The notes: a model not told the origin generated them from the letters alone. Shown: positions 30,890 through 54,990, counted from the first letter of the stretch. The stretch is DNA of 64,000 bases from Candidatus Daviesbacteria bacterium (GCA_028715175.1 JAQUSJ010000001.1:546386-610385); one strand, 5' to 3'. Numbers and translations: made by a program.

Positions 30890-32674
30890 TTATTTAACTG
30901 TAACGCTTTTAGCTATGTTTCTGGGTTTGTCTACATTATGACCTAATTCCACAGCCATATAATAAGCCAGAAGCTGCAAGGGGATTATATTCATGATGGC
31001 AGAGGTTTCACCGGTATCCGGAACAGGAATATAGTGGTCAAAGACAGCACAGGCAGCGGGAGAAATGCCGATTACTGTTGCACCTCTTGCCTTAACCTGA
31101 TTGACTGCATTTATCACGTCATCCCTGGCCAAATCCTCCGATACCACCGCAATCACCGGCACGCCTTTTTCCATCAAGGTTATTGCATAGTGCTTTAAAT
31201 CTCCTGCGGGGATACCATGAGCATGTATGTATGATCCTTCTATTATTTTAACCATTCCTTCACTGATAATATTAAAATTTTGATATTTGCCCAGCAGAAA
31301 GATATCTTTATGTTTAGCTAAAATTTTTGCCAGATTCTTAATCGTTTCGTGGTTTGCATTTGTATTCAAGTATTTATCCATCTCCTCAACTAACTTTTTT
31401 AAGTTAACCCTTCCTTCTTTGCTTTTTCCGCTTGCCACTTTTGCTATCAGATATCCCCAGGCAATTTGTGAGGTAAAAACTTTAGTGGACATCACACAAA
31501 TCTCCGGTCCTGCGTGCGCAGAATACGGGTGATCGGAAATACGCGCCATAGTAGAACCCGGCATATTAACATACGAAGCAATCTTAACACCTTTCTTTTT
31601 GGCAATTTCTAAAACTTCCAAAACATCTGCTGTTTCACCGGATTGTGAAGGAGCAATTATCAAGTCATCCTTGGTTAATAAATCATAGTAGTCATACATA
31701 TCAGCGCCTATGACGCTTCTTGCGTTAACTTGAGCAAATACCCGAAGGTAAAAAGCGACCTCCGATGCGGCGATGCCGGCTGTACCAGACCCGATTGTGT
31801 AGACATTTTTGGCTTCTTTTAATGTTTTGATGAAATCCTCGTATAACTTAAAGTCTTGATTTAAAACCTGACTGACAACATAAGGGCTCTCATGAATTTC
31901 CTTAAGCATGAAATGATCATAACCTTCTTTATCAACTTTGCTGTTTTTAAAATCAATCTTCTCTAAATGATAAGGCAAATCTTTGTTGGACTTGATATCC
32001 CTAAGTTGCAGCTTGCCATTCCAGGTTATCATCTGCCCGTTTTCTACAACTAGTATTCTGTTTACATAAGGAGCAAACGATAGCGTGTCGGAAGAGAAAA
32101 ATATCTCTTCACCATTAACTCCCACCACCAAAGGGGAACCGTTTCGGCAAGCTATAATCCGGCCCGCTTTTGTCACAAGAATAATGGTATTTCGTCCCTC
32201 CAATTCTAAAAACGCCAGCCTCACCGCTTCCTTTAAATCTACTTTCCCACTCGTCAAGTGGGAAGCTGTTTTTAATTTATCTTCTATTAGTCGAACAATC
32301 ACTTCTGTGTCTGTTTCTGTTTGAAATTTATAGCCTTTTTTTTGCAAAGCAGATTTCAACTTCTGATAATTTTCCACAATGCCGTTTTGCGCAAGGACAA
32401 AAGATTTGTCTGAAGAAAAATGCGGATGGGCGTTTGTGACATTTACCCCACCATGGGTAGCCCAGCGGGTATGACCAATCCCTGCATTGGATCTCGGCAG
32501 ATTAATGAGTTGGTTCAAGTCGCCAATCGCTCCAACTTTTTTGTCAATCTTGATCTGGTCTGCCACCACTGCAATACCCCAGGAATCGTAACCCCGATAT
32601 TCCAGCCTTTTTAAACCTTCCAGAATAACTTCAGAAGCATTTTTTGATCCAATATAGCCAAATATTCCACACAT
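30890..32674 (-). CDS. glmS: Glutamine--fructose-6-phosphate aminotransferase
   Basis: N-terminal MCGIFGYIG (Cys1 nucleophile), two SIS domains, 594 aa. It contains a family-2 palindromic insert encoding ASHLTSGK. Confidence 0.9.
   Translation of the reverse strand: MCGIFGYIGSKNASEVILEGLKRLEYRGYDSWGIAVVADQIKIDKKVGAIGDLNQLINLPRSNAGIGHTRWATHGGVNVTNAHPHFSSDKSFVLAQNGIVENYQKLKSALQKKGYKFQTETDTEVIVRLIEDKLKTASHLTSGKVDLKEAVRLAFLELEGRNTIILVTKAGRIIACRNGSPLVVGVNGEEIFFSSDTLSFAPYVNRILVVENGQMITWNGKLQLRDIKSNKDLPYHLEKIDFKNSKVDKEGYDHFMLKEIHESPYVVSQVLNQDFKLYEDFIKTLKEAKNVYTIGSGTAGIAASEVAFYLRVFAQVNARSVIGADMYDYYDLLTKDDLIIAPSQSGETADVLEVLEIAKKKGVKIASYVNMPGSTMARISDHPYSAHAGPEICVMSTKVFTSQIAWGYLIAKVASGKSKEGRVNLKKLVEEMDKYLNTNANHETIKNLAKILAKHKDIFLLGKYQNFNIISEGMVKIIEGSYIHAHGIPAGDLKHYAITLMEKGVPVIAVVSEDLARDDVINAVNQVKARGATVIGISPAACAVFDHYIPVPDTGETSAIMNIIPLQLLAYYMAVELGHNVDKPRNIAKSVTVK
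32244..32267. repeat. Family-2 in-frame palindromic element (TTCCCACT-cgtca-AGTGGGAA-gct) inside glmS
   Basis: 8-bp stem / 5-nt loop; encodes ASHLTSGK on the minus strand, at a site where GlmS homologs are about 5 residues shorter. Confidence 0.8.
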
Positions 32675-32702
32675 GTTATTCAGGGATTATATCATGTACA
32701 CC

Positions 32703-32735
32703 TACAAGTGGGTGCTGAGGGATTTGAACCCCCGA
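32703..32735 (-). other. Orphan tRNA 3' fragment (T-arm + acceptor 3' strand: GTCGGGGGTTCAAATCCCTCAGCACCCA) with no 5' half
   Basis: The reverse complement shows a GGGGG-TTCAAAT-CCCTC T-arm and a 7-nt acceptor strand. tRNA-Val begins 7 nt away, so no room exists for a 5' half. Confidence 0.45.
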
Positions 32736-32742
32736 CATCTTC

Positions 32743-32819
32743 TGGTGGACAAGACAGGACTCGAACCTGTGACCTCCTCAGTGTAAATGAGGCGCTCTAA
32801 CCAACTGAGCTACTTGTCC
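32743..32819 (-). tRNA. tRNA-Val (anticodon UAC)
   Basis: Reverse complement GGACAAG TAGCTCAGTTGGTTAGAGC GCCTC ATTTACA CTGAGG AGGTC ACAGG TTCGAGT CCTGT CTTGTCC A CCA. Confidence 0.8.
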
Positions 32820-32891
32820 AAATCAGCGCTCTTCCCGGTGTGTCAATCTATCCCACCCCTGGTGTGTGTTAGCTTCACACCGTAGGGTATG

Positions 32892-32974
32892 TGCCGGGAA
32901 GAGGAGTTGAACCTCCACGCCCTTACGGGCACTACCACCTCAAGGTAGCGTGTATACCATTTCACCATCCCGGC
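32892..32974 (-). tRNA. tRNA-Leu (anticodon GAG), long variable arm
   Basis: Reverse complement GCCGGGA ... CTACC TTGAGGT GGTAG T GCCCGTAAGGGCGT GGAGG TTCAACT CCTCT TCCCGGC A. Confidence 0.7.
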
Positions 32975-33052
32975 TTGCTTAGAGTATCTGATAATTTTAT
33001 CAGTTTAATGCAGGCATATCAATCTGAAACAGAGGATTAGTAACTCTTTTTC

Positions 33053-34279
33053 CTAAAGGGAATTTTGTTTTTTTGAATGCTCTGGATATAAAACTAATAT
33101 AATTCTTTCCCAGGCTACTAGAAACCTTTTCATCTCATCCATTGCTGCATCATATTCCGGTGTATCTTTATCTTGTCTAATAAAAGTTGTTTGTCTTTTC
33201 TTTAGACCGTTTCTGTAAATGCTTCTTGCTTCTTCGTAAGACATATCTTCTTCTACCCCTATTAATTCTAAAGCTTCAGCATAGTTTTTACTGGCATTTT
33301 CAAATAAATCTTCAATTCTAGATTCATCCGACCCTCTCTTTGCCTCTTCAGCTTTCCTTTCCCGTTCTTCTTGTTTAACACCAAAATTATGATACCTAAA
33401 ATGCGCATCAAAATCATAGCCTCTAGAAAAACGCATTTGACTCAACTTTGCTGGATCTATTTTAAAATCATCAGGAACTTCTCCAGCGGAAGGTTTGTTT
33501 GTACCATATTTAATCTGGGCATAGGCTTTCATTAGATCAAAATCAAAACCATTAGCTTGATATTGCCCGCTTAAAAATTCATAGGTGGCAAGGGCTTGTA
33601 ATGCCTCTATATTTTCTTCAGGTTTTTTCCCATTAGCCTGATAGGCTAAAACTATGGCTTGACGGGCTTTGATCCTCATATTAAATCTCCCCATGACTTC
33701 CTTAGCTTCCTCAAAAGATTTGCCTTCAAACTCTTGTTCTTTCGCATTCACATCCTTAAGCCGATCATCAATTTCATTTGCTACTAAAAGGACTGAATTA
33801 ATTAAATGTTTATCTGGTTGTCTAGAGTTCGGACGTGGATTATATAAAATGCTTCTTATCGTATAGAAACTTCCCTCTACAAGTAATGCATCTTGCAATG
33901 AATTTAATTCTGGAAAACCTTCTGACGTATCAATCACATATTGAACTAATCCTTCGGGATTACGAAGCTTTGCTATCCTGGATGTCTCTCTTTGAAGAAT
34001 CTCCAAGCCTTGAATGCCATACATCAAGCCGTCTTCAGAACCTTCCAATGCATCATATAGTTTGAGCATTATTTCCGGATTATCCCCGGTGTAAGGATGT
34101 CGACCAATAGCTTCACGTAGACCACCCCATTCTGTGGGCTGATCAACTGCTATACCTATAGCCCGATTTACAGCCTTAGGATCATCTAAAGAACCATCAA
34201 AGAACTGTACAAAACCTTCAATTATATTTTCCATAAAAAATCCAAGAACGAGTATAAAATTTTTATATAAAAATTTCAA
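33053..34279 (-). CDS. Hypothetical protein (408 aa), acidic/helical, with a J-domain-like C-terminal segment lacking HPD
   Basis: ORF flanked by tRNA genes; no confident domain call. Confidence 0.45.
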   Translation of the reverse strand: MKFLYKNFILVLGFFMENIIEGFVQFFDGSLDDPKAVNRAIGIAVDQPTEWGGLREAIGRHPYTGDNPEIMLKLYDALEGSEDGLMYGIQGLEILQRETSRIAKLRNPEGLVQYVIDTSEGFPELNSLQDALLVEGSFYTIRSILYNPRPNSRQPDKHLINSVLLVANEIDDRLKDVNAKEQEFEGKSFEEAKEVMGRFNMRIKARQAIVLAYQANGKKPEENIEALQALATYEFLSGQYQANGFDFDLMKAYAQIKYGTNKPSAGEVPDDFKIDPAKLSQMRFSRGYDFDAHFRYHNFGVKQEERERKAEEAKRGSDESRIEDLFENASKNYAEALELIGVEEDMSYEEARSIYRNGLKKRQTTFIRQDKDTPEYDAAMDEMKRFLVAWERIILVLYPEHSKKQNSL

Positions 34280-34305
34280 CTATGGGGCATTGCGCTTTTG
34301 AGTAG

Positions 34306-34389
34306 TGCCCCAAGGGAGATTCGAACTCCCACGCCATTTCTGGCACTGACTTCTGAGGCCAGCCTGTCTACCAATTCCAGCATCGGGGC
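34306..34389 (-). tRNA. tRNA-Leu (anticodon CAG), long variable arm
   Basis: Reverse complement GCCCCGA TG CTGGAATTGGTAGACAG GCTGG CCTCAGAA? parsed as stem CTGGC / loop CTCAGAA / GTCAG, variable arm TGCCAGAAATGGCGT, T-arm GGGAG TTCGAAT CTCCC, acceptor TTGGGGC A. Confidence 0.75.
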
Positions 34390-34447
34390 TTTATTCTCAT
34401 ATTTTAGCACTATTCCACTTTTGCAGGTAGTGTATAATACTTTCTTA

Positions 34448-35458
34448 ATGGCAAAGTATCCTTTCCAGCAAAAAATAGTCACTTTTGGCGGAGGGACAGG
34501 ACATTTCTCCCTCCTTCGCGGTTTGGTAGAACTCAACCAGCCGGAACTGATCAGTGCAGTTGTAGGCACCTGGGATTCGGGCGGATCATCAGGCAGATTA
34601 AGAACCGAACTGGGAGTTTTACCTCCCGGAGATATCAGGCAATGCCTGCTGGCTTTAATGGAAGATCCAAAACAGCGTCAGGTTGCCCAAAAGCTTTTTG
34701 ATGACAGGTTAGCAAACATTGAAGGCCCGCTAAAAGGTCATAGTTTGGGCAACTTAATTGCCGCCAGGTTAGAACACATTTATAAGGGCGCGGATAGAGG
34801 TGTGGAGGCAGAACGCTTGCTTTTTAGAATCAGATCTAGGGTTTTACCTGTGAGCATATCAGAACTAAACTTAATGGCAAAACTGGAAGGCGGAGAGGAA
34901 TTAGATGGAGAAACTAATATAGATTTAAGAGGGGAAAAGGAGAACTATGATAAAAAGAAGAAAATCACCAGGGTTTATTTTGAAACCAATGCAGACCCAA
35001 ACCCGGAAGTACTGCAAGTTATTACCGATGCTGAAAAAATAGTCTTCTCTATGGGCGATTTGTACACCAGCGTTTTACCCCATCTTTTGGTTGCCGGAAT
35101 AAAAGAGGCAATTGAGGGATCAAAAGCAAAAGTAATCCTTGTGCTCAACTTGATGACCAAAATAGGGGAAACGGACAACTTTAAAGCCTCTGATTATTTA
35201 AAAAGCTTCTCATACTACCTGGGTGGCAAAAACAGGATAGATGTGATGGTTGCAAACTCCAATGGGTTAGACAGCGAGATCTTAAAAGTCTATAAAAAAG
35301 ATAAGCAGCAACCTGTAGCAGTAGACGAAGCTGAATGCAGAAAAATTTCCCCTGGCATAAAAATAGTGCAAAAACCTTTGGCTGTTTATCATATCAGGGA
35401 ACATCTTTTCCGCCACGATCCGCAAAAATTAGCCGGCACCATTTTAGAAGTGGAATAG
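34448..35458 (+). CDS. YvcK/CofD-like (UPF0052) gluconeogenesis-factor family protein
   Basis: KIVTFGGGTGHFSLLRGL...GTWDSGGSSGRLRTELGVLPPGDIRQCL matches the YvcK/CofD pattern. The table ORF starts at 34298 inside the tRNA, so the internal ATG at 34448 (MAKYPFQQ) is used. Confidence 0.7.
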   Translation: MAKYPFQQKIVTFGGGTGHFSLLRGLVELNQPELISAVVGTWDSGGSSGRLRTELGVLPPGDIRQCLLALMEDPKQRQVAQKLFDDRLANIEGPLKGHSLGNLIAARLEHIYKGADRGVEAERLLFRIRSRVLPVSISELNLMAKLEGGEELDGETNIDLRGEKENYDKKKKITRVYFETNADPNPEVLQVITDAEKIVFSMGDLYTSVLPHLLVAGIKEAIEGSKAKVILVLNLMTKIGETDNFKASDYLKSFSYYLGGKNRIDVMVANSNGLDSEILKVYKKDKQQPVAVDEAECRKISPGIKIVQKPLAVYHIREHLFRHDPQKLAGTILEVE

Positions 35459-35544
35459 CCTCAAAAATACCTGCACGCAGGTCGCCGAAGTATTGACAAA
35501 AGACAAAAATTCTGGTTACTATCAATTGCAGAAATTTTTAGCAG

Positions 35545-36147
35545 ATGGACAATCTCAACCTTAAAACCAATGTGTGGTTTGTTGCTGCCTGGTTTGCAGC
35601 AGCAACTACCGCTTTAATATTTTCACTTACTTTTACCTTGTACCTCTCAAACGCTAAAATAATTAATCCCAATCCGCCGGCTGGCGGACAAAGCTTTAAG
35701 TTATATGCAGCTTTACCTAAGTCTGAAACATTTATTACAGACGAAATAAACTATGCTGACGGCAGGGCAAAAATAATTGAGGATTTTTTGAAAAATTACA
35801 AATCACCCTTATCCGATTATAGCCATATTTTTATCCAGGTTGCCGATAAATACCAGTTAGACTACCGGTTATTGCCTTCAATCGCCATGCAGGAATCAAA
35901 CGGCGGGAAAAAAGTTATTAATCACTCCTATAATCCATTCGGATACGGCATATATGGCAGTATGGTGCTCAAATTTAATTCATGGGAAGAGGCGATTGAA
36001 AGGGTTGGCAAAGCCCTGCGCGAGGACTACTTAAATCAGGGCTTGAAAACACCATACCAGATAATGACCAAATACACACCTCCGTCTCTGCTCGTGGACG
36101 GAAGTTGGGCTAAAGGCGTTTTTACCTTCATGGAAGAACTGCGATAA
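35545..36147 (+). CDS. Membrane-anchored glucosaminidase-domain (GH73/FlgJ-like) protein, paralog 1
   Basis: LLPSIAMQESNGGKK...NPFGYGIYG...YLNQGLKTPYQIMTKYTP. Confidence 0.6.
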   Translation: MDNLNLKTNVWFVAAWFAAATTALIFSLTFTLYLSNAKIINPNPPAGGQSFKLYAALPKSETFITDEINYADGRAKIIEDFLKNYKSPLSDYSHIFIQVADKYQLDYRLLPSIAMQESNGGKKVINHSYNPFGYGIYGSMVLKFNSWEEAIERVGKALREDYLNQGLKTPYQIMTKYTPPSLLVDGSWAKGVFTFMEELR

Positions 36148-36157
36148 TTCTTGCAGT

Positions 36158-36190
36158 CACCTCGAAAGTGAGCTTTGGCTCCTTCGAGGT
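36158..36190. repeat. Family-3 hairpin element (cacctcgaaagtg ... ttcgaggt), intergenic copy
   Basis: 8-bp stem with a 16-nt loop; related to the pheT internal copy. Confidence 0.55.
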
Positions 36191-36196
36191 AATAGT

Positions 36197-36225
36197 TTGA
36201 CTTCTGATCCCCTTTCTGCTATACT
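36197..36225 (+). promoter_or_regulatory. Sigma70-like promoter TTGACT-N17-TATACT
   Basis: -35 at 36197..36202 and -10 at 36220..36225, with exact 17-nt spacing; read directly. Confidence 0.5.
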
Positions 36226-36239
36226 ATCGGTCTTAAAAA

Positions 36240-36265
36240 CCTGTACCCTCTGGTACGGGTTTTTT
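36240..36265 (+). terminator. Terminator-like hairpin (cctgtacc-ctct-ggtacggg) + T6, located between the promoter and the start codon of glucosaminidase paralog 2; possible attenuator
   Basis: 8-bp stem with one G-U pair, 4-nt loop and T-tract at 36260..36265; ATG at 36273. Confidence 0.45.
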
Positions 36266-36272
36266 AAAAGCT

Positions 36273-36869
36273 ATGAAAACAAAAAAATTAAAAATTTTTT
36301 ATTTTTTATTAACTCTTCTATTTCTTTTCCCAAACATGCAAGTTCGGGCGGAAAAAAAGATGGAAATTACTGACCAGGTTATCCAGGTGCAATCCAGAAA
36401 ATTGGATAGCAAAGCAGAAATTTTAGCTGCCTATTTGGAAAAATTCGATTCTCCGCTGCAATATCATGCGCAGGATTTTATTGATGCTGCCAACGAATAT
36501 AATTTAGACTGGAAACTTTTACCCTCAATTGCAGGCGTTGAATCCACTTTCGGAAAAGCTATCCCGGGAGGATTTAATGGATGGGGTTGGGGAGTTTATG
36601 GCACCCAGGCTATTTATTTTAGTTCATGGAAAGAAGCTATTTTTACTGTCGCTAAAGGTTTACGCGAAAATTACTTAAACAAAGGTTTAACAAACCCTTA
36701 TTCCATAAACAGAGTTTATGCTGCTTCCCCTTATTGGGGCGGAAAGGTTTCATATTTCATGAATGATTTAGAAAAGTTCGCAAACGCTTTTGAAGGCGGA
36801 GATATGCAGGCAAATATCGGTTTTGTTCCAAAAATAGCTGCCATCTCGGGCCAATTAGCCTTAAGATAA
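36273..36869 (+). CDS. Secreted glucosaminidase-domain (GH73/FlgJ-like) protein, paralog 2
   Basis: Signal peptide MKTKKLKIFYFLLTLLFLFPNMQVRA; LLPSIAGVESTFGKA...NGWGWGVYG...YLNKGLTNPYSINRVYAASPYWG. Confidence 0.6.
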   Translation: MKTKKLKIFYFLLTLLFLFPNMQVRAEKKMEITDQVIQVQSRKLDSKAEILAAYLEKFDSPLQYHAQDFIDAANEYNLDWKLLPSIAGVESTFGKAIPGGFNGWGWGVYGTQAIYFSSWKEAIFTVAKGLRENYLNKGLTNPYSINRVYAASPYWGGKVSYFMNDLEKFANAFEGGDMQANIGFVPKIAAISGQLALR

Positions 36870-36872
36870 ATA

Positions 36873-36899
36873 ACTAGTGACTAGTGACTGGTGACTAGT
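36873..36899. repeat. Tandem TGACTAG / ACTAGT (SpeI-site) triple repeat: actagtgactagtgactggtgactagt
   Basis: Read directly; intergenic, immediately upstream of murT. Confidence 0.5.
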
Positions 36900-36911
36900 T
36901 ATAATGCCCAT

Positions 36912-38270
36912 ATGAAACTCATTCTAGCTATTCTTCTAGGTAAACTAATCCTTTTTCTCACGCGTAATTTTAAAATCGGAGGAGGCTCAGCTGCTCCGGG
37001 TTTATATGCCCTGTCTATTGAACCGGATCTGGTTGCAAAATTAGCTGCTAAAATCCCCAAAAATGTAGTGATAACCGGAACTAACGGCAAAACTACTACT
37101 GCCAAAATGCTGGCCCATTTTGCGAAAGAAACAGGGCTTAAAGTTATCAGAAACCATACCGGTTCCAATCTTGAACGCGGTATCGCCTCAGCTTTTATTC
37201 AAAACCTCCGTTTACACCCCAAGGGTGTAAAGCTAAACCATGATATTGGCATTTGGGAACTGGATGAAGCAGCTTTTAATGCCGTTGCCCCAAAACTGCA
37301 ACCTGACATTGTTGTATTTTTGAATGTCTTCCGTGATCAACTTGACCGTTATGGTGAAATTGATACTGTAATCAAAAACTGGTACCAGGCGTTAAAAAAA
37401 CTCTCTTCGGAAACTGCGGTTTTAGTTAACGGCGACGATGCCAACATATTAAAACTGGCTGCCTGTTTTAGAGGTAAAGTTCAAACATTCGGGGTTCAAA
37501 ATTGCAAAATCGCGGGGGAGGAAATTGAGCGTCAAAAAGAACAGGAAAACCTTGATTTTGAAGCAAAAAATGTCAAAACAAGCGGATTAACCGGCAGTTT
37601 ATTTCAATTAACTATTAACAATGAACTATTAACTGTTAACCTACCTCTTCCCGGTATCTACCATATCTATGATTTTTTGGCTGCCTTTACTACAGGAACA
37701 ATATTAAATATAGATCCTGATAAAATGGTTTTGTCCTTGAAAACCTATTCACCTGCCTTTGGCAGGGTCGAGAAATTCCATTTAAACCCTACGTTTCATC
37801 GTACTCCTACCTCCGAGGTAGAATACATGGGGTATATTTTCCTGATCAAAAATCCGGCCGGAGCTACCCAGGTCTTTAAAACTATTGCGCCAAATATCAA
37901 ACCCGGGGACAGAATCCTTCTGGCATTAAATGACAACATTGCGGACGGTACAGACGTATCATGGATCTGGGATGCGAATTTCGAATCACTTCGAAATTCG
38001 TCGAATCTTTCTGAACGAGCGCAGTCGAGGGACTATACAATAATTACTTCTGGAATCAGAGCAAATGATCTGGCGCTCCGCTTGAAATATGCCAATTTTA
38101 ATCCTAAAGAAATAGTTGTAGAACCGGACCTGAAACAGGCCCTGAAACAAGCTGGAGTGGGCTTAAAAGGCAAATTGTTCATCCTTCCCACATATACTGC
38201 CATGCTGAAACTGCAATCAATCCTGACTAAAGCCAGCATCAAGAAACATTACTGGGAGGAGGATAATTAG
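36912..38270 (+). CDS. murT: Mur-ligase-family protein, MurT-like (lipid II isoglutaminyl synthase ligase subunit)
   Basis: VVITGTNGKTTTAKML is the Mur ligase P-loop; the C-terminal DUF1727-like region is followed by a GatD-like partner gene. The table ORF uses GTG 36891; ATG 36912 (MKLILAIL) is preferred. It contains a family-1 palindromic insert encoding LRLHPKGVKL. Confidence 0.65.
   Translation: MKLILAILLGKLILFLTRNFKIGGGSAAPGLYALSIEPDLVAKLAAKIPKNVVITGTNGKTTTAKMLAHFAKETGLKVIRNHTGSNLERGIASAFIQNLRLHPKGVKLNHDIGIWELDEAAFNAVAPKLQPDIVVFLNVFRDQLDRYGEIDTVIKNWYQALKKLSSETAVLVNGDDANILKLAACFRGKVQTFGVQNCKIAGEEIERQKEQENLDFEAKNVKTSGLTGSLFQLTINNELLTVNLPLPGIYHIYDFLAAFTTGTILNIDPDKMVLSLKTYSPAFGRVEKFHLNPTFHRTPTSEVEYMGYIFLIKNPAGATQVFKTIAPNIKPGDRILLALNDNIADGTDVSWIWDANFESLRNSSNLSERAQSRDYTIITSGIRANDLALRLKYANFNPKEIVVEPDLKQALKQAGVGLKGKLFILPTYTAMLKLQSILTKASIKKHYWEEDN
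37209..37237. repeat. Family-1 in-frame palindromic element, copy 2, inside murT
   Basis: Identical 29-mer; encodes RLHPKGVKLN. Confidence 0.8.
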
Positions 38271-38350: not shown

Positions 38351-39073
38351 ATGAAGCTTGTAATCGGTTATCTTTACGGCGACCTAATGAATATCTATGG
38401 AGATACAGGCAATATCATTGCCCTGAAAAAGCGGGCAGAATGGAGAGGGATTAAAGTAATAATCAAAATGTTCACGATCGGAAATGAAATGAAAAAAGGT
38501 ATGGCTGATATTTACTTTTTCGGAGGCGGGCAAGACCAGGCTCAGGAATTAGTAGCAAGGGATTTAGTTGTAAGCGGTAAGGGAAAAGTCATCAAATCAG
38601 AGGTTGAAAGAGGAGTACCACTGCTTTCTGTTTGCGGAGGATATCAGTTACTGGGTGATTATTACAAACCTCACAAAGGTCCTAAACTTCCAGGCGTAGG
38701 ACTATTTCCAGCATATACTGTAGCAAGCCATGACCGGATGATCGGCAATATCATAATCGAATCTATGTTTGGCAAATTAATTGGTTTTGAAAATCATTCC
38801 GGAAAAACTTACCTGAAAAAAGGCGCTTTACCTTTAGGCATGATAGTAAAAGGTTTTGGCAATGGCGGCACTGTCCAGACTGAAGGCTGTATTTATAAAA
38901 ATGCCGTTGGTACTTATATGCATGGCTCGCTTCTGCCTAAAAATCCCAAATTAGCAGACTGGCTGCTGAAAAAAGCTCTGGAAGTAAAATATGGAAAAGA
39001 GTTGGAGCTAAAGCAACTCGATGACACTCTTGAACTCCAAGCCCACTATAAAGCAATCCAAAAATTCGGCTAA
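38351..39073 (+). CDS. gatD: CobB/CobQ-like glutamine amidotransferase, GatD-like (glutaminase partner of MurT)
   Basis: SVCGGYQLLG (catalytic Cys in the CGGYQ context) and ...YMHGSLLPKNPKLAD (His region); 240 aa; immediately downstream of murT. Confidence 0.65.
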   Translation: MKLVIGYLYGDLMNIYGDTGNIIALKKRAEWRGIKVIIKMFTIGNEMKKGMADIYFFGGGQDQAQELVARDLVVSGKGKVIKSEVERGVPLLSVCGGYQLLGDYYKPHKGPKLPGVGLFPAYTVASHDRMIGNIIIESMFGKLIGFENHSGKTYLKKGALPLGMIVKGFGNGGTVQTEGCIYKNAVGTYMHGSLLPKNPKLADWLLKKALEVKYGKELELKQLDDTLELQAHYKAIQKFG

Positions 39074-40024: not shown

Positions 40025-40078
40025 CACGCCGCAATTATAAATTGTAGCTCGTATAAATTCAACTTCTATCTGTTTTTG

Positions 40079-44861: not shown

Positions 44862-46559
44862 ATGAGAGTTTCACTTTCCTGGCTCAAAGAATTAGTTGAT
44901 TATAAACTATCTCCTCAAGAACTGGCAGATAAATTGTCGCTTATTTCCATTGGAATAAAAAATCAAACACAAGACTCTCTGGAATTAGATTTAACATACA
45001 ATCGGGGTGACTTACTTTCCATGCGCGGAGTAGCCAGAGAAGTAGCTGCTGTAACAGGCTCTAAGCTATTATTTTCAAACCTCAAACCACCTACTTATCC
45101 TTGTTTGCCTGAAACCCCGGTACAAGTTGACAATAAAAGTCTTTGTCCGGTTTATTGTGTAGCTAAAATTGAAGGCATTAAGATTGAGCCATCGTCCGAT
45201 CAATGGGTAAAAAAATTAACGGATTGCGGTGTCAGATCTGTCAATAATATTGCTGATGTCACTAATTTGATCATGCTTGAGTATGGCCAACCCATGCATG
45301 CCTTTGATGCATCTCAAGTCAAAGACGGGATGCTGATTGTGAGAACTGCCAGGCAGGGTGAAAAAATTATGACACTTGATGGAAAGGATCGAATTTTAGA
45401 TGAAACTGACTTATTAATTGCGGATTCAGAAAAAGCTCTGGCGCTTGCCGGAGTAATGGGAGGAAAAGATTCTGAAATTACGCAAACTTCAACAACTATT
45501 CTCCTGGAGGCAGCCATTTTTGATCCTGTTTCCAATAGGAAAAGTTCTAAAAAACATGGCCTTTATTCTGAAAGCACAAAAAGATTCCAGCATGGCCTAA
45601 CTAAAACTAACTTGCTCCAGGCTCTTTCTGCTGCCATAAAAATGTATGAAGGTTTGGGTGGAAAACTGACTGCCATTACACTTACGGGAAACCTTCAGGA
45701 TCAAGTAAAAACCATCCAACTGACCCAGCAAAAGATCAATTCATTAATCGGGGTAGACATTCCATCAGGGGAGGTAGAATCATCCCTCAAAAAACTAGGA
45801 TTTAGACTAGAAGCAAAACACCTCGAAGGTGAAAAAATGCGATTACACCTTCGAGGTGGAATGGTTTGGGAAATAACAGTGCCTTATTGGAGACTGGATA
45901 TAGAAATTGAGGAGGATCTGATAGAAGAAGTAGCCAGAATGTATGGGTATGAAAAAATCCCCCCAAAAGCGCTTGAAGGGAATCTTCCGGAGAAAATCGA
46001 TCAAAGTTTTCCCAATTTTATTTATGATTTGAAAAAATCCTTAAAAGAGGCAGGTTTAACAGAAGTACAAACATATTCTTTTTATTCAACAAAAGTAATT
46101 GAAATCCGCCAGCTGGCGGAGAAAACTGAAAACTTAATTAAGATTGCTAATCCTATTTCATCTGAAACCGAGTATTTAAGGGACAATCTTTGGCCAAATC
46201 TGTTAGAAGTAGCTGCCAAAAATATCAGGAACGGAATAAAAGATATAGCTATTTTCGAGGTAGGCAAAGTGTATGCGCCACAAAAAGGTGATTTACCAAA
46301 AGAAACCTACCGATTGGCGATTGCTTTAGTAAACGGCACAGATAATCCCATCCAGGAGCTTAGTCAAATCTCCCAAAGTTTAGGATTACACCCCAAGGGT
46401 GTAATCGGGGGTTTACAGCTAAACCCAAGAGAATATTTTCATCCAACAAGGTATACAGATGATATAGCCGAAATTCACCCAAGATTTGTGAATAAATTCG
46501 GGATTGATCAAAGAGTGGCTGTTTTGGAAATAGAATTAAATCCTCTAACGAGGCCCTGA
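44862..46559 (+). CDS. pheT: Phenylalanine--tRNA ligase beta subunit (short, 565 aa), with two in-frame palindromic inserts
   Basis: N-terminal MRVSLSWLKELVDY; B3/4 and B5 regions present. Inserts at 45819..45858 (HLEGEKMRLHLRGG) and 46386..46423 (LHPKGVIGGLQLN). Confidence 0.85.
   Translation: MRVSLSWLKELVDYKLSPQELADKLSLISIGIKNQTQDSLELDLTYNRGDLLSMRGVAREVAAVTGSKLLFSNLKPPTYPCLPETPVQVDNKSLCPVYCVAKIEGIKIEPSSDQWVKKLTDCGVRSVNNIADVTNLIMLEYGQPMHAFDASQVKDGMLIVRTARQGEKIMTLDGKDRILDETDLLIADSEKALALAGVMGGKDSEITQTSTTILLEAAIFDPVSNRKSSKKHGLYSESTKRFQHGLTKTNLLQALSAAIKMYEGLGGKLTAITLTGNLQDQVKTIQLTQQKINSLIGVDIPSGEVESSLKKLGFRLEAKHLEGEKMRLHLRGGMVWEITVPYWRLDIEIEEDLIEEVARMYGYEKIPPKALEGNLPEKIDQSFPNFIYDLKKSLKEAGLTEVQTYSFYSTKVIEIRQLAEKTENLIKIANPISSETEYLRDNLWPNLLEVAAKNIRNGIKDIAIFEVGKVYAPQKGDLPKETYRLAIALVNGTDNPIQELSQISQSLGLHPKGVIGGLQLNPREYFHPTRYTDDIAEIHPRFVNKFGIDQRVAVLEIELNPLTRP
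45819..45858. repeat. Family-3 hairpin element (cacctcgaaggtg-N14-caccttcgaggtg), in-frame inside pheT
   Basis: 13-bp perfect stem; encodes HLEGEKMRLHLRGG. Confidence 0.6.
46386..46423. repeat. Family-1 in-frame palindromic element, copy 3 (variant with a 12-nt tcgggggtttac internal duplication), inside pheT
   Basis: ttacaccccaagggtgtaa + tcgggggtttac + agctaaa; the extra 12 nt keep the frame (LHPKGVIGGLQLN). Confidence 0.75.
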
Positions 46560-49327: not shown

Positions 49328-49446
49328 GTAGTGATTATAGCAGAAATTAGGTATAATACACTTGTTACGAGATAGAGATCATAATGGACTTTTCAGTAGA
49401 TTGACTAAATAATAGTTTGAGGTATGGACAGAAAAATCCAAATGAT

Positions 49447-49529
49447 CCGGAGGTGGCAGAGTGGCCAATTGCAGCTGACTGTAAATCAGCCGGGATTTCC
49501 CTGCGAGGGTTCGAATCCTTCCCTCCGGA
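49447..49529 (+). tRNA. tRNA-Tyr (anticodon GUA), long variable arm
   Basis: CCGGAGG TG GCAGAGTGGCCAATTGC A GCTGA CTGTAAA TCAGC CGGGATTTCCCTGC GAGGG TTCGAAT CCTTC CCTCCGG A. Confidence 0.8.
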
Positions 49530-49655
49530 CTTTGTAAAATTTGACCAGTCTAGTACTGGACAAATTTTTGCAATTTCGAGGATTAAGGATTTGAAGAGCG
49601 CACTTGCTTGCAAGTAAGTCTGTTCGTTCTTTTTGGCTCTTGTCAAAAAGGGTAT

Positions 49656-49676
49656 ATCATCCTCCCCTCCGGACTT
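49656..49676 (+). repeat. Partial duplicate of the tRNA-Tyr 3' end (atcctcccctccggactt vs atccttccctccggactt), 130 bp downstream of the tRNA
   Basis: 17/18 identity read directly; att-site-like repeat. Confidence 0.5.
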
Positions 49677-50077
49677 AAAATGTTATAATTATCATATAAA
49701 TAATATGGGTGGAAATAATTGTGAATTCCGAACAGGCTGTCCTTATAAAAGAGAATTTTTACTCCGGGATAAATGCGCAATGGGATCAGACGATAATGAT
49801 TCATCCAGTGCTGTAGAAACCTGTGGTCGTGTACTATCTGAACTGTTGCTTGGTAATAGACTCCTACGAAGAGGAACCAAAGATACAAGAGGTTGCGTTC
49901 CTCGTGTAGCGTCAGATGGTTCGTACTCTATAACTTTTAATCGACCTCCACGAGAGGATTAAAATCCTCTGCTCCCCATAGACTTAAACTCTAGCAACAC
50001 CCCCAGTTAAACCAATGTTAAAAGTTGACAAATTTAAGGAACTTGGAGTAGTGTAAAATTACAAAGATAACCCGAAA

Positions 50078-51238
50078 ATGCAAAGAGGAATTGCTACTTT
50101 TACACTAGACTGGGGAACCTGCCCTAAATGGCTTTTTGAAAGAATGGTCCGTTTGGGCAGGGAAATAACCAGGGTTTTGATCGAAGAATATGGCCCGGAT
50201 GAGTTTATCAAAAGAATTGCTGACCCTGTCTGGTTTCAAAGTTTAGGCACAGTTTTAGCCTTTGACTGGAATGCCTCGGGACTAACAACAATACTTACAG
50301 CAGCTCTCAAAGAGGCTATAAGGGGAGAGGAGCAGCATTTTGGGATTTTTATTTGTGGAGGCAAAGGTAAAACTTCCCGCAAAACTCCTGATGAAATTCT
50401 GAGATGGGGTGAAAGATTAAATCTACCTCCAGCTCATGCTAACAACTTAGTTTATAACTCCAGAATGTCTGCCAAAGTTGACTCTTCTCTTATCCAGGAC
50501 GGTTTTCAAATCTATCACCACAGTTTCTTTTTCTCTAATCCGCCGACTGGCGGAGGTGTCTGGGCAGTTGTTCAGCAAGGGATGAATACAGGTAATCTTA
50601 CTGCCAGAAGGTACCATTGGTACTCGGAAAATATTGATGATTTAGTTTGCGAACCTCACTCCGGCATCGTTACTCAAGCTGCTCAAAACGAGGTTTTAAA
50701 TTTAACTGCCAAAGCTAGTACCAAAACCCGAAACTTAAGCACGCAGTTAGTTTCTAACGGTTACCAGACTCTAATAAAAGATATTGAACTTTTAAGAAAA
50801 CATTCATCAAAGTTAAGCAAAATGATGAAAGTATCTATAAAAGGAGAGGAGCTGACTTTGTTAAAACTGGCAGGCAGTGAATTTCATCACCATCCGGTGG
50901 AAGATGAAGATTTCTGGGATAGTCCATATCTTAAAAAGATTCTGGAAAGATTATCAGGGGAAAAGCCCAAAACCTATGAAAGTCTTCTGGGAAGCCGAGG
51001 GGTGGGGCCAAAAACTATCAGGGCTTTAAGCTTGGTTTCAGAAGTAATTTATGGGGCCACACCTTCTTATGAAGACCCTGCCCGCTATAGTTTTGCCCAC
51101 GGCGGAAAAGATGCCACTCCTTATCCGGTAGACCGGCCAACCTATGATTCGACAATTGAAACTTTAAGAAAAGTGGTGATTAAATCAAGAATCAACCCTT
51201 GGGAAAAGGACAAAGTGCTGAGACGTCTGTCTCACTAA
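50078..51238 (+). CDS. DUF763-like hypothetical protein
   Basis: The N-terminus ATFTLDWGTCPKWLFERMVRLGREITRVLIEEYGPDEFIKRIADPVWFQSLGTVLAFDWNASGLTTI resembles DUF763 as I recall it; a TTGACA -35 lies at 50022..50027. Confidence 0.4.
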   Translation: MQRGIATFTLDWGTCPKWLFERMVRLGREITRVLIEEYGPDEFIKRIADPVWFQSLGTVLAFDWNASGLTTILTAALKEAIRGEEQHFGIFICGGKGKTSRKTPDEILRWGERLNLPPAHANNLVYNSRMSAKVDSSLIQDGFQIYHHSFFFSNPPTGGGVWAVVQQGMNTGNLTARRYHWYSENIDDLVCEPHSGIVTQAAQNEVLNLTAKASTKTRNLSTQLVSNGYQTLIKDIELLRKHSSKLSKMMKVSIKGEELTLLKLAGSEFHHHPVEDEDFWDSPYLKKILERLSGEKPKTYESLLGSRGVGPKTIRALSLVSEVIYGATPSYEDPARYSFAHGGKDATPYPVDRPTYDSTIETLRKVVIKSRINPWEKDKVLRRLSH

Positions 51239-51257
51239 CAGATTAGGAAGATCTTGT

Positions 51258-53063
51258 CTATCTGCATACCGGAGTTTTAACCCGGCCAAATTTTTGGCCT
51301 AAACGTAAAACTAAAGTCAGAAAAAAGTAATAAAATTTTCCATGGTAGTGTTTTGAGGATTCTATTAAATGCTCGTTAGCTTTTTCCTGACCAATCCTTT
51401 TGGTGGAACCACCATGGAAATGGATAAATTTGGCTGATGGAACAAAATAAATCGGTATCCCAAAGGCTTTAAGCCTCCTGGCATACTCAATATCCTCAAA
51501 GAAGATAAATGTTTCCTCGTTCAATAAACCAACCCTGTTTAAAATTTTTCTCGGAATTAAAAGACACGCCATTACCAATCCTTCAACTTTATACCACCTG
51601 GGAGGTGGGCTTTGACTCCTCCCAGGTGAATCAGGCAAAAACATGAAATATGAACCTTTTTGGGCAAGGAAATATTCTTTAAAAGCACCAGATAAAGTAG
51701 GGAGATGAAAAGCAGAGTCTTGGTCACTCGTGTCCGGAAACACTAATTTTCCACCCAAAACAGCGCTACCTCCAAATTCATCTTCAGCTTTTACCAACTC
51801 CGAAATCCCGTTTTTTAAAACTTCTATATCAGAATTAAACATCAAGTAATATTCACCCAGGGAAAACCTGATTGTCTTGTTATAACCTTTGGTAAACCCC
51901 TCATTCTCTTGATTTTGTAAATATTTAATCTTGGGCAGAAACTCTTTGATGACATCCTTGCAAGGATCAGTTAAACCATTATCCAAAACAATCACTTCCA
52001 TGTCACTGGGGCGAAAGCCGGAATCTATATTAAAAATACTTTCTAAAAGTTTCTTAGTTAGATCTGGCGTATTGTAATTAACTATGCCTATCGACAGCTT
52101 AAGCGGATACTCTGCATTCCCACTCGTCAAGTGGGAAGCTAAATTTCCATTACCTGTTACCCCTAAATAAAAATCCAAAATACCTCTTCTTTGAACAGGC
52201 CTGCCAAAAATCAAAAGCTTAACCGCCTCTCGAACCAGGGCAAATCTGGTCCTCAATCTTCCGTATTGCATGCCAAAAATTAACCTGTTCCTGGTGTGAT
52301 AATAATCTGTTATCTTGGAACCAATGCCGGTTGAGCTGGAAACTTTGTGGTAAACCGCTACTTGACCATTGTAGTAAGTTTTGAATCCATTGTCTTTGGC
52401 TCTTTTTACAAAATCACTATCCTCAAAATACAGAAAATATCTCTCATCAAATCCGCTCTCCGGCGGAGCGATTTTTTCCATGACTTCTTTTTTAATCAGG
52501 ACGCATGCACCGCTAATGATTTCCGCCTCTTCAACCTTATCGTATTGTCCCTTATCTACCTCATCAATTCCGCGGTGAATGGAGCCGATATTATCCCAGT
52601 CAAATCTTCCTCCCGCATACCAGATAATCCGGCCTGAATCCTGCTTCTTGTACCTGTCCCTATGAAACTCAAAACCAGGTGCAAAGTAAATCTTGGGGGA
52701 AACCAGACCAATTTTAGGATCAAACTGCGCTGTTTTCACCAGTTCTGAAGTTAAATTAGAATCTTTTATCAAACAGTCATTGTTGATGAGTAAAAAATAA
52801 TCTGCCCCCCAAATTCTGGCATATTCAACGCCTCGGTTGTAACCGCCAGCAAATCCCAAATTTTCTCCGGTTTGTAAAATATCAACCTCCGTAAATCTTT
52901 TTCTGATCTCAGAAACACTTCCATCCCAAGAGCCATTATCTACCACAATAGTTCGTAGTTTGTAGTTTGTAGTTTGTAGTTTGCCAAGAGATTCCAGAAA
53001 TTCCAGCGTATCTTTTTTACCATTATAATTTACAGTAATAATTGCAATTTTAGTCATATTCAT
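51258..53063 (-). CDS. Tandem double family-2 glycosyltransferase (two GT2 domains), with a family-2 palindromic insert in the inter-domain linker
   Basis: Domain 1 IAIITVNYNGKKDT...VVDNGSWDGS; domain 2 LSIGIVNYNTPDLT...VLDNG; the linker NLASHLTSGN is encoded by 52117..52140. Confidence 0.8.
   Translation of the reverse strand: MNMTKIAIITVNYNGKKDTLEFLESLGKLQTTNYKLRTIVVDNGSWDGSVSEIRKRFTEVDILQTGENLGFAGGYNRGVEYARIWGADYFLLINNDCLIKDSNLTSELVKTAQFDPKIGLVSPKIYFAPGFEFHRDRYKKQDSGRIIWYAGGRFDWDNIGSIHRGIDEVDKGQYDKVEEAEIISGACVLIKKEVMEKIAPPESGFDERYFLYFEDSDFVKRAKDNGFKTYYNGQVAVYHKVSSSTGIGSKITDYYHTRNRLIFGMQYGRLRTRFALVREAVKLLIFGRPVQRRGILDFYLGVTGNGNLASHLTSGNAEYPLKLSIGIVNYNTPDLTKKLLESIFNIDSGFRPSDMEVIVLDNGLTDPCKDVIKEFLPKIKYLQNQENEGFTKGYNKTIRFSLGEYYLMFNSDIEVLKNGISELVKAEDEFGGSAVLGGKLVFPDTSDQDSAFHLPTLSGAFKEYFLAQKGSYFMFLPDSPGRSQSPPPRWYKVEGLVMACLLIPRKILNRVGLLNEETFIFFEDIEYARRLKAFGIPIYFVPSAKFIHFHGGSTKRIGQEKANEHLIESSKHYHGKFYYFFLTLVLRLGQKFGRVKTPVCR
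52117..52140. repeat. Family-2 in-frame palindromic element inside the double-GT2 gene linker
   Basis: Identical 24-mer to the glmS copy; encodes ASHLTSGN. Confidence 0.8.
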
Positions 53064-53075
53064 AAATCATAAATC

Positions 53076-53993
53076 TTAAATCACTTTTAAACCTTCCAAA
53101 TAAACTCTGGCCCTTTTAGTTTTCCCTAAAACAGAAAAGGCGATTATTCTCAAGAGTAAACCGATGATTAAAAATAGTTTTACCAACCAATAAAAAGTTC
53201 TATAATGTTTTTTCAAATAAAACTTAATGCCTTTTAATTCATTGATAAAACTGGAACTTAAGTCAAAACTTGTGCTGGCTCCATGGAGATGAACCACCTC
53301 AATACGAGGAACATACCAAATTTTAAACTTGGCATCCTTGATTCTTTTACACCATTCTACTTCTTCCATATGCATAAATAAATTCTCGTCAAAACCGCCA
53401 ACTTTACTGTAAATTTCTCTTTTCAGCATAAAAAAAGCGCCCATAACCCAACCAACTTGATGAGCTTTGGAGAAAAACTTTCTATCTCTTGGATGAAAAG
53501 AAGCAGCCAATCTGTTGATGAAAGGTATTAGACTTAAACCAAAAATCCAAAAAAATATATTTAAAGGGGTAGGCAAATTACCGCAACTCGGCTGAAGTTC
53601 TCCGCTTGCATAATTTAATCTGGCGCCCAGGGAGTCGCAATTTAAATTAACCCTAAAGTAAGCCAGCGCTTTATATAAACTCTCTTCCTCAACGTAAACA
53701 TCGGAATTAAGCAGTAGAATATACGGATACTTAGACTGCCTCAAACATACATTATTTCCCTTGCTAAATCCCAGATTTTCCTTTGAAATAATCAATTTTA
53801 CCCGGGGATATTCTGATTTTATAAGACCAACTGAACCGTCGGAAGATCCGTTATCCAAAACTATCACTTCAATTTTATTACCCAGTCTTTTTTCACAATA
53901 GCTTTTGGCTTGCTCAAGCTTAATAAGACACCTGCGAGTTATGTCTTTTGTATTAAAGCTCAAAATGATAACTGATAAATCTAAATTATTCAT
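53076..53993 (-). CDS. Family-2 glycosyltransferase
   Basis: LSVIILSFNTKDITRRCL...VLDNGSSDGS. Confidence 0.8.
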   Translation of the reverse strand: MNNLDLSVIILSFNTKDITRRCLIKLEQAKSYCEKRLGNKIEVIVLDNGSSDGSVGLIKSEYPRVKLIISKENLGFSKGNNVCLRQSKYPYILLLNSDVYVEEESLYKALAYFRVNLNCDSLGARLNYASGELQPSCGNLPTPLNIFFWIFGLSLIPFINRLAASFHPRDRKFFSKAHQVGWVMGAFFMLKREIYSKVGGFDENLFMHMEEVEWCKRIKDAKFKIWYVPRIEVVHLHGASTSFDLSSSFINELKGIKFYLKKHYRTFYWLVKLFLIIGLLLRIIAFSVLGKTKRARVYLEGLKVI

Positions 53994-54990
53994 ATCTTAA
54001 CCCTGTAATTATCCTAAATTTTCTGTAATGCTCCAAAAGTTTAATTCCCCAAAGTACAAAATCACGGAATAGGGGAGGATATTTTTTGTAGTAGTGTTTT
54101 TTATAAAAAATCCTCATGGCAGAAACACCATGAACGGCAATTTTTAACCTTTTTTCTTTACTCACTTTTAACGCCGCTGTTTTCCAAAGACCCGAAGATG
54201 AACCTTTATAATGAATGATTTTTACTTCAGGATAAAAATAAATCTTCCAGCCTTTCATCTTTAGGCAGTAACAAAACTCGATATCCTCACCATTCCAGAA
54301 ATAATCCGTATCCCACCAGTTAATTTGATCTCCGGCAATTTTTCTAACCAGCAGAAATGCCCCTGTTGCACAGTCAATCTCGTGGGCTTTTCTAACGTCA
54401 AGATAAGAAACGGTATATCCGGAAAAAATAGGGGAGCGAGGAAAGAGTTTGGAAAGACCGGAAAAAAACATCAATGAATTCCATGGGGTAGGAAAACCCC
54501 TGTGACAGGAATAATCCAGTCTTCCGTCCGGTAATTCAACTCTACAAGTTAAAGCCCCATAATCGGGGTTGGAAAACAAAACTTCCAGCGATTTTTGGAT
54601 TACATGATCCACTATAACCGTATCCGGATTCAAAAATAAAACAACAGGAGCTTTGGCATATTTAACCCCTACATTGTTTCCGGCAGCGAATCCTAAATTC
54701 TCTCTATTTTCCACCAATTCAACTACGTTCCCACTTGACGAGTGGGAAGCTGTTTTGTATTTTTCTTTTACGGCTTCTACTGACCCATCAGAAGAAGCAT
54801 TATCCACCACAATTACCTGCCATCTATCCAGTTCACCTTTGCTTTGGAAAATAGATTCCAGACACCTCAGTAGCAGATCTTTGACATTATAGTTTAGGAT
54901 AATGATGGACAGCTCAGGATTTTCTAGACTTACCATGTAGGAATTATTGTATAACGACAGAAGTTTAATTACCAATCTAGAATTTGACAA
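53986..54990 (-). CDS. Family-2 glycosyltransferase, with a family-2 palindromic insert (ASHSSSGN)
   Basis: LSIIILNYNVKDLLLRCLESI...VVDNASSDGS; insert at 54728..54751. Confidence 0.8.
   Translation of the reverse strand: MSNSRLVIKLLSLYNNSYMVSLENPELSIIILNYNVKDLLLRCLESIFQSKGELDRWQVIVVDNASSDGSVEAVKEKYKTASHSSSGNVVELVENRENLGFAAGNNVGVKYAKAPVVLFLNPDTVIVDHVIQKSLEVLFSNPDYGALTCRVELPDGRLDYSCHRGFPTPWNSLMFFSGLSKLFPRSPIFSGYTVSYLDVRKAHEIDCATGAFLLVRKIAGDQINWWDTDYFWNGEDIEFCYCLKMKGWKIYFYPEVKIIHYKGSSSGLWKTAALKVSKEKRLKIAVHGVSAMRIFYKKHYYKKYPPLFRDFVLWGIKLLEHYRKFRIITGLRYE
54728..54751. repeat. Family-2 in-frame palindromic element (opposite orientation, loop tgacg) inside a GT2 gene
   Basis: Reverse-complement form of the 24-mer; encodes ASHSSSGN; shares the 3' flank gctgtttt with the glmS copy. 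Confidence 0.8.

Follow-up and report, generated by a model that had tools for sequence, protein, structure and literature searches.

We studied a stretch of 64,000 nt from a contig of 743,708 bp in a metagenome-assembled genome (MAG) of Candidatus Daviesbacteria, referred to below as the window, whose coordinates are counted from its first letter. A short palindromic element, family 2, occurs in it three times, each time inside a gene. We consider it probable that family 2 is a hairpin of the REP type (repetitive extragenic palindrome), the cognate repeat of a Y1/HUH transposase which resembles the REP-associated tyrosine transposases (RAYT), in Daviesbacteria and in neighbouring Microgenomates. 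Family 2 is read as a REP/RAYT system because the hairpin brackets the Y1/HUH transposase gene in related genomes.

An earlier note on this DNA had announced three copies of a palindrome placed in frame in glmS and in two genes of GT2 glycosyltransferases, and this is what we find. The copies (TTCCCACT-N5-AGTGGGAAGCT, at 32244-32267, 52117-52140 and 54728-54751) are exact, the motif TTCCCACTNGNCNAGTGGGAAGCT being matched without any mismatch at 32244, 52117 and 54728. All three lie in open reading frames (ORFs) of the minus strand and share one coding frame, GCT TCC CAC TYG WCR AGT GGG AAn. The host genes and the copies, taken with their tags and outer arms, are the following.

30890..32674, minus strand: glmS, 594 aa, host of copy 1; Pfam gives a GATase domain and two SIS domains.
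32235..32273, minus strand: family-2 copy 1 in glmS; core 32244-32264; plus-strand loop CGTCA; peptide K-T-ASHLTSGK-V-D.
51258..53063, minus strand: double GT2 glycosyltransferase, 601 aa, host of copy 2; Pfam gives two GT2 domains with the element between them.
52108..52146, minus strand: family-2 copy 2 in the inter-domain linker of the double GT2; core 52117-52137; plus-strand loop CGTCA; peptide N-L-ASHLTSGN-A-E.
53986..54990, minus strand: GT2 glycosyltransferase, 334 aa, host of copy 3; Pfam gives a single GT2 domain.
54719..54757, minus strand: family-2 copy 3 in the GT2 gene; core 54728-54748; plus-strand loop TGACG; peptide K-T-ASHSSSGN-V-V.

With its tags and outer arms, copy 1 reads AAATCTACT-core-GCTGTTTTT. 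As DNA, each of the three folds into a hairpin with an 8-bp stem and a 5-nt loop, at about -8 kcal/mol (z from -3.5 to -4.2; for copy 1, -7.6 kcal/mol and z = -4.2). A chance origin is excluded, as the note had expected: the motif is matched in none of 100 dinucleotide shuffles of the window. No further family-2 copy was found in the window with up to three mismatches allowed. Since the host genes are unrelated, gene duplication is ruled out as the source of the copies, and the view that they represent a dispersed element is upheld. An assembly artefact is ruled out as well, the element being carried by many independent MAGs.

To describe the element we built a consensus from 55 copies, turned by their asymmetric flanks: AAAwyYAGC-TTCCCACT-YGWCR-AGTGGGAA-YRYRRATTT, or K-L-A-S-H-[LS]-[TS]-S-G-N-V-[DK]-F in protein terms. 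The full element reaches about 27-39 nt, and not the 24 nt initially proposed; it has an 8-bp stem which begins with TT, a 5-nt loop, asymmetric tags (AGC...CGT) and A/T-rich outer pairs. Drawn in full, the consensus forms a stem of 13 bp, and a 2x2 mismatch inside it (GC facing CG) sets off the tags on both sides. The tail AGCT(AAA/GTTTT), to which the note had drawn attention, does exist, but because the element extends beyond 24 nt this tail is no separate feature: it is made of the last base of the stem, a 3-nt tail and a part of the imperfectly paired outer arm. When the flanks were compared with the GTAG tag, one of them had the consensus Y-R-Y-R-R (mostly CGTAG or CGTAA) and the other YAGC, so that the tag is variable.

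The third copy had been described as flipped, and the difference between the LT and SS peptides had been put down to the orientation of the whole element. Neither statement holds. The tags which flank the third copy are oriented as in the other two, and its loop alone is inverted. Similarly, in the orthologous glmS copies of four species the loops are inverted while the tags are fixed. Among the 53 intragenic copies that we collected from relatives and the window (see below), 22 have the loop CGTCA and 18 the loop TGACG; the tags, read on the coding strand, are AGC..YRY in 36 cases and reversed in 6. The orientation of the loop is therefore free and that of the tags is not; hence the third copy results from a loop inversion in place, from which the difference between the peptides arises. 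Where the copies vary otherwise, both bases of the innermost pair have mostly changed in a compensatory way (CACT..AGTG to CACA..TGTG), and the loop with them.

The 21-nt core was scanned in a collection holding one genome per species, which gave 70 loci. About 64 are in low-GC Microgenomates MAGs (Daviesbacteria, Levybacteria, Shapirobacteria and other Patescibacteria); the remaining 6 are high-GC, which is by our estimate about the chance expectation for 18 specified bases in 596 Gb. The perfect core is found in about 75 copies in about 32 Microgenomates genomes. The fetched sequence (about 599 kb in total) holds 75 perfect copies and 13, 8 and 3 copies with one, two and three arm mismatches, for which 0.005, 0.11 and 1.7 are expected. 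Counting the perfect copies of the hairpin-selected loci and of the window (73) and leaving out the 12 at the transposase locus, we obtained a dispersed set of 61 copies, which are singletons and not inverted doublets (REPINs). Within ORFs of at least 100 aa one finds 53 of these 61 (87%), about the coding density of such genomes. As to the labels of the source MAGs, some are titled 'uncultured Gammaproteobacteria' (loci L009, L010, L018, L022, L026, L033, L034, L037, L045, L053, L055-L057, L060, L062, L063 and L068); with 35-43% GC, orthologues 60-79% identical and synteny with Daviesbacteria, these taxonomic labels look wrong.

The 53 intragenic copies are read in the SHxxSG frame 48 times (91%), in the PTRQVG frame 5 times and never in the FPLxxWE frame, and the combination of frame and loop which would give a TGA stop does not occur among them. 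Such a bias could mean that the peptide ASH[LS][TS]SGN is itself selected, as a short linear motif. We reject this explanation, which we regard as extremely improbable, because the Ser, Gly and His codons are invariant among the copies and because other frames are used: the same DNA is also read PTRQVG, and FPLDEWE inside the transposase. Some copies are moreover intergenic. A second explanation takes the element for a DNA uptake sequence, or for some other recognition motif spread over the genome, which biased uptake and recombination would have accumulated (like the uptake signal sequences, USS, or DNA uptake sequences, DUS). It would suit the conservation throughout the clade, the intragenic position with a preferred frame and the 'dialect'-like variants seen at orthologous sites. 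Known sequences of this kind occur about once per kb, however, whereas the density here is too low, with 1-11 perfect copies per genome and about one per 21 kb in the window (3 in 64 kb). In addition, the element changes the length of the sequence rather than arising by substitution, and several unrelated palindrome families coexist in one genome, so that we hold this second explanation to be very improbable.

The evidence which ties the hairpin to an enzyme comes from the relatives of the window. Ten of the fetched loci contain an ORF of the type ...YHIYNRG...LMPNHFHLL...SKYIHRN-SFPLDEWE-GKVYPYSSY. The protein, of 215 aa, matches Pfam Y1_Tnp (PF01797) at 34.4 bits for a cut-off of 23, and its only match in NCBIfam is the REP-associated tyrosine transposase. 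More than 7,500 homologues are found at E <1e-10; across the 120 homologues compared, the motifs YHIYNRG, LMPNHFHLL (HUH) and SKYIHRN (with the Tyr) are conserved. Eight loci contain the gene in full; in each of them a TTCCCAC-N7-GTGGGAA hairpin precedes the start by 21-34 nt and another follows the stop at 4-25 nt. A third hairpin is internal and directly follows the motif with the catalytic tyrosine; seven of these eight selected loci have it at codon 147, and L045 has it at codon 154 with one mismatch. Three more genomes (one of them from Levybacteria) were fetched through the protein and not through the hairpin: here too hairpins flank the gene, 8-28 nt from its ends, and two of the three have the internal hairpin, at codon 146. 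In one of them, L078, both flanking stems are shortened to CCCAC...GTGGG, the downstream one having been missed by the scan and read from the printed flank. In total, the gene has a hairpin upstream and downstream in 11 genomes, and an internal one in all but one of them. The codons TTC, CTT and GAA of the arms inside the gene are invariant in 8 of 8 species; by comparison, only 10 of the 96 other columns with an invariant residue keep one codon, and these are all preferred codons ending in A or T. Each genome represented among the fetched loci has the gene once, and in 6-8 species its neighbours are the same. Finally, in L028 the positional orthologue is only 44% identical and has a different hairpin, TTCCGATC-CGG-GATCGGAA, on both sides, with a third copy of it elsewhere in the locus.

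The copies come and go between close relatives. The closest one is STB_119, at about 90% nucleotide identity (glmS locus L071, second locus L072, transposase P0251/L046). Its glmS has no copy 1 and is exactly 21 nt shorter; in the GT2 linker it has, instead of copy 2, a different and perfect 13-bp palindrome, CAATCCTGGTTTG-N7-CAAACCAGGATTG; the third copy is kept, with one stem substitution (L072:8228), and is also present in L052. The insertion polymorphism which the earlier note had proposed to look for is thus found. That GlmS contains an insert relative to shorter homologs is confirmed as well, although E. coli lacks exactly 7 residues there (shltsgk), and not about 5 as had been stated. 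In an alignment of 120 GlmS orthologues the site is empty in 83, filled by a family-2 peptide in 11 and by other short inserts in 26, many of which are peptides of palindrome type (LPAGRQG or SRLRGNDKGG, for instance). Carriage of family 2 is polyphyletic, the sequences nearest to the carriers being empty: the GlmS of the window, P0001, carries the element, and P0002, 93% identical to it, does not. Similarly, P0054, P0011 and P0040 are mutually 89-90% identical; the first carries family 2, the second is empty and the third has another palindrome.

These results bear on an explanation without mobility, in which the hairpins would be functional structures selected in place (acting on mRNA decay or ribosome pausing at domain boundaries, or as DNA sites bound by a host protein), the link to the transposase being incidental or regulatory. 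Arms conserved at the nucleotide level with varying loops would agree with it, and so would the position of copy 2 in an inter-domain linker and the different palindromes which stand at the same sites in different species, as if any hairpin were required. It is nevertheless difficult to reconcile with the 83 of 120 orthologues, and the closest relative too, which do without a hairpin at the glmS site; the positions within genes are scattered, both orientations of the tags relative to transcription occur, and selection on structure alone does not predict identical 21-mers in unrelated genes of about 32 species. We therefore find it unlikely.

Several results weigh against the REP/RAYT reading. 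At the level of the alleles, the comparison of filled and empty sites does not show a clean cut-and-paste of the core: the nearest empty glmS alleles differ from the filled ones in their immediate flanks, and at sites other than glmS the net change in length is +12 or about 0 nt. The number of perfect cores per genome is low (1-11 among the species representatives). At the level of the enzyme, no Y1 gene was found within the 64-kb window, so that the link depends on relatives, STB_119 included. The NCBIfam match of the protein (NF047646) scores 39.4 bits, below the equivalog cut-off of 80; the protein is a distant relative of the curated RAYT and not an equivalog. Against the sequences of the PDB, a single-sequence search gave only spurious matches to XRCC4 and a profile search gave nothing; the AlphaFold model of the transposase has a mean pLDDT of 46, too poor for a comparison of folds. 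Lastly, no RAYT is known to move REPs in vivo.

The flanks deserve closer attention. Two independent filled glmS alleles share TTA AAA AYA GCT-core-AAM GTA GAT TTA, a patch which ends within about 45 nt and whose flanks resemble the consensus of the element. As the flanks of the empty alleles differ, either the transferred unit measures about 39-45 nt or the insertion is accompanied by local remodelling. Comparing filled with empty sites, we found neither a clean target-site duplication nor a common target motif; the context is only A/T-rich. A spread without any enzyme, through ectopic gene conversion, template switching at quasi-palindromes or interspecies transformation followed by homologous recombination, would account for these facts in another way: filled alleles which share 39-45 nt, flanks included, unlike the nearest empty ones, resemble the replacement of a patch, the net changes in length are variable, and loop inversion is the classic outcome of template switching. 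A shared patch of at most about 45 nt is too short for ordinary RecA-dependent conversion, however, and such a spread leaves unexplained why the same hairpin brackets a conserved Y1 gene in 11 genomes and why the diverged orthologue of L028 is flanked by a different one. We hold it to be quite improbable. Each of the rival explanations accounts for some of the features, and none of them explains the bracketing of the transposase together with the polyphyletic gains.

Coming back to the REP/RAYT reading, our data establish the repeat family with its anatomy and frame bias, its presence/absence polymorphism, the repeated use of sites and the association with the transposase gene; that the RAYT-like enzyme mobilises the hairpins, and how the target is chosen, we infer. 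As in the IS200/IS605-RAYT superfamily, the substrate would be single-stranded DNA, on which the enzyme would recognise the folded hairpin together with its tag, cutting and rejoining alongside. Hairpin units would then come and go almost without a scar, and would do so by preference at or within hairpins already present. Most landings would be in genes because these genomes are about 90% coding, and purifying selection would keep the copies which are in frame in tolerant surface loops or linkers; the bias to the small polar peptide (A)SH[LS][TS]SG(N) is expected if only such copies survive. The loops would invert in place, through template switching within the hairpin or recombination of a cruciform, while the arms would stay fixed because the enzyme must recognise them.

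The closest known systems include the TnpA-REP of E. coli. Family 2 resembles the REP/RAYT systems, or 'REPtrons' (PMC3733652), by an imperfect palindrome of 20-40 nt with short unpaired tags at unrelated loci, by the coexistence of several repeat families in a genome, by a single-copy, vertically inherited Y1/HUH gene bracketed (in the relatives) by its own repeat, and by the pairing of a diverged enzyme with a different hairpin (L028). It differs from them in that about 87% of the dispersed copies are intragenic and in frame instead of extragenic, in that these are mostly singletons instead of REPIN doublets, in the absence of a clean 5' GTAG tag (the tags being YAGC/YACG...CGTAG/GCT), in the copy which usually sits inside the coding sequence of the transposase, just past the catalytic tyrosine, and in its host, a lineage of the candidate phyla radiation (CPR), whose protein is below the NCBIfam cut-off for RAYT. 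Intragenic REPs and REP-flanked RAYT genes are known from other phyla (PMC3733652). The hairpins around the transposase gene are arranged as is described there for RAYT genes and their REPs. What is unusual in family 2 is its mainly intragenic, in-frame position. In the searchable literature we found no description of in-frame palindromes of this kind in CPR/Patescibacteria.

The REPs with a CGTC tag, among which are RPE-4 and RPE-6 of Rickettsia, also have known intragenic in-frame copies and have been reported without a dedicated transposase (PMC3733652). They are defined there by a tag, a stem of 8-9 bp opening with two A/T pairs, a loop of 4-5 nt and a 3-nt tail, and the layout of family 2, TTCCCACT / 5 nt / AGTGGGAA + GCT, agrees with this architecture. 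In contrast to them, family 2 has the tags ACG/AGC and variants instead of CGTC/TGTC/CCTC, the tail GCT instead of CCA, and a cognate transposase gene. Hairpins with a true TGTC tag form a separate family in the window (58484, 58533 and 62633).

With the Rickettsia palindromic elements of the RPE-1 type, family 2 shares the look of selfish palindromes in frame in loops of housekeeping proteins. RPE-1 measures about 100-150 bp and has no known enzyme. By length class family 2 is far shorter (27-39 nt), and its turnover, visible between genomes 90% identical, is much faster. Other coding palindromes exist, for instance in mitochondria (PMC6649704). As for IS200/IS605, the enzyme belongs to the same superfamily (Pfam Y1_Tnp) and there are hairpins by both ends of the gene; here, however, the dispersed units are bare single hairpins, and the gene, present once at a chromosomal position that is conserved, is therefore no multi-copy insertion sequence. 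Enzymes of the IS200 type prefer the template of the lagging strand.

The same sites are used by several palindromes. To tell the other hairpin families apart we relied on a sorted listing of perfect hairpins, since clusters built on the outer 8 nt were too strict. Family 1 was said to share its 3' tail motif with family 2, which is correct: the tags ACG...GCT are common to both, and this fits a common mechanism. The pattern ACG-TTTACACCCCAAGGGTGTAAA-GCTAAA is matched at 18367 and 37211, and the features concerned, with the dimer found in pheT, are these.

18364..18390, plus strand: family-1 hairpin ACG-TTTACACCCCAAGGGTGTAAA-GCT with family-2 tags, in ORF 17804-19459; peptide RLHPKGVKL.
37208..37234, plus strand: family-1 hairpin ACG-TTTACACCCCAAGGGTGTAAA-GCT in murT (36891-38270).
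45818-45858: inverted dimer ACACCTCGAAGGTG-N13-ACACCTTCGAGGTG, in frame in pheT (44862-46559).

At the site of ORF 17804-19459, the orthologues L012 and L068 have family 2 in place of the family 1 of the window; at that of murT, family 2 stands in L026 and L027 and another sequence in STB_119. A site at 38489 is empty in the window, filled by family 2 in L057 and L058 and by another hairpin in STB_119. Six species have six different sequences at the pheT site 45818-45858; apart from one, all are palindromic, the dimer of the window included. Among the five other species two have family 2 and one a family-1-like sequence. The GT2 linker is hypervariable in 120 orthologues, many of which carry family-2, family-1-like or other hairpin peptides there. 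L013 has the family-2 element with opposite tags at nearly the same place as the third site, and L041 has an unrelated compound palindrome there. Finally, in two species a GC-rich palindrome (CTCGCC...GCGGG; CTCGCCTCGC...GCGGG) is nested in a family-2 copy, where it separates AAG from TGGGAA and gives the peptide SPR(E/S)AGG; the two genes are unrelated (a recG-like gene in L033 and pheT in L004). Either the two palindromes travel together as one composite element, or existing hairpins serve as targets for others.

One may go further and propose that REP hairpins are a standing generator of diversity in the loops and linkers of proteins, the RAYT inserting them site-specifically at or into existing hairpins. 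We put this forward tentatively and are inclined to doubt it. Insertion of hairpins into hairpins would account for the recurrent, polyphyletic gains at one codon position of glmS, for the replacement of one palindrome family by another between genomes 90% identical, and for the second palindrome nested at one position of family 2 in two unrelated genes. If the proposal were true, the hairpin which follows the catalytic tyrosine in the coding sequence of the transposase could be an autoregulatory site, or the origin of the repeat family.

REPs are extragenic by name, and their mobilisation by RAYT is still debated. The present family has a clear cognate RAYT-like gene, and its copies are almost all intragenic; therefore gains, losses and replacements can be read from alignments of orthologues, even at about 10% divergence, and these alignments record how REPs turn over and choose their targets. 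The 'coding palindromes' in the style of Rickettsia are also linked to a specific enzyme family, and some of the lineage-specific loop insertions in CPR proteins are seen to come from mobile hairpins rather than from adaptation. There is also a warning for annotation, as short conserved peptides such as ASHLTSGN are repeats at the DNA level.

We add some observations on other repeats. In L047 (1378-1402), a hairpin GTAG-ACCCCGATttaATCGGGGT-AGAT directly follows a family-2 copy, with GTAGA repeated on both sides. In the double GT2 gene of the window, the host of copy 2, there is a second hairpin insert, CCGCTCTCCGGCGGAGCG, at 52453-52470 (+12 nt relative to STB_119). At the C-terminus of pheT (46384-46406) one finds a family-1-like variant, GATTACACCCcaaGGGTGTAATC; L004 and L044 have family 2 at this site, and L057 has GCAACCTtccAGGTTGC followed by AAGCTAAAA. 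TCCGCC-N4-GGCGGA hairpins lie in genes at 46105-46120 and 50539-50554; STB_119 has neither of them (net +6 and +12 nt).

The TGTC-tagged hairpins at 58484-58503 and 58533-58552 (tgtcATTCCCGCgcatGCGGGAATcta and ATCCCTGCatccGCAGGGATgaca), inverted and 49 nt apart, are within ORF 58214-59155, the ATP synthase gamma gene by synteny with L072. Judged from its sequence, this pair is a REP dimer of the CGTC type. The pair recurs in L050. In STB_119 the first site is taken by a different palindrome, GGTCCGCCttGGCGGACC, and the second by another sequence that is weakly palindromic. The TGTC-tagged hairpin at 62633-62653 (tgtcATCCCGTActtgaTACGGGATctatatag) is in the gap between ORFs 61899-62618 and 62701-63984, and its joint 'ctatatag' also joins two inverted hairpins in L050 and L067.

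Scans of the window with Rfam and for tRNAs gave only tRNAs and no match at the palindromic elements; the 12 tRNA genes are spread over 10726-49530, several of them flanking glmS (30790-30863, 32743-32819 and 32891-32974). At 19477-19499, TATCCCACCCcagGGGTGGGATA occupies the 57-nt gap between convergent ORFs (ending at 19459 and 19517); a terminator and a third REP family are both conceivable, and L013 has a related palindrome, CTATTCCACCtggagGGTGGGATAG, in its GT2 linker in place of family 2. Upstream of murT, at 36873-36897, there is a tandem repeat of the heptamer ACTAGTG/ACTGGTG, in which STB_119 has 9 more bases (ACTCTAGTG), about one unit. Lastly, a clean insertion of 22 nt relative to STB_119, made of the hairpin TCGTCCaaaGGACGA and of CTAATCT, is present at 61867-61888, in a position which appears to be intergenic.

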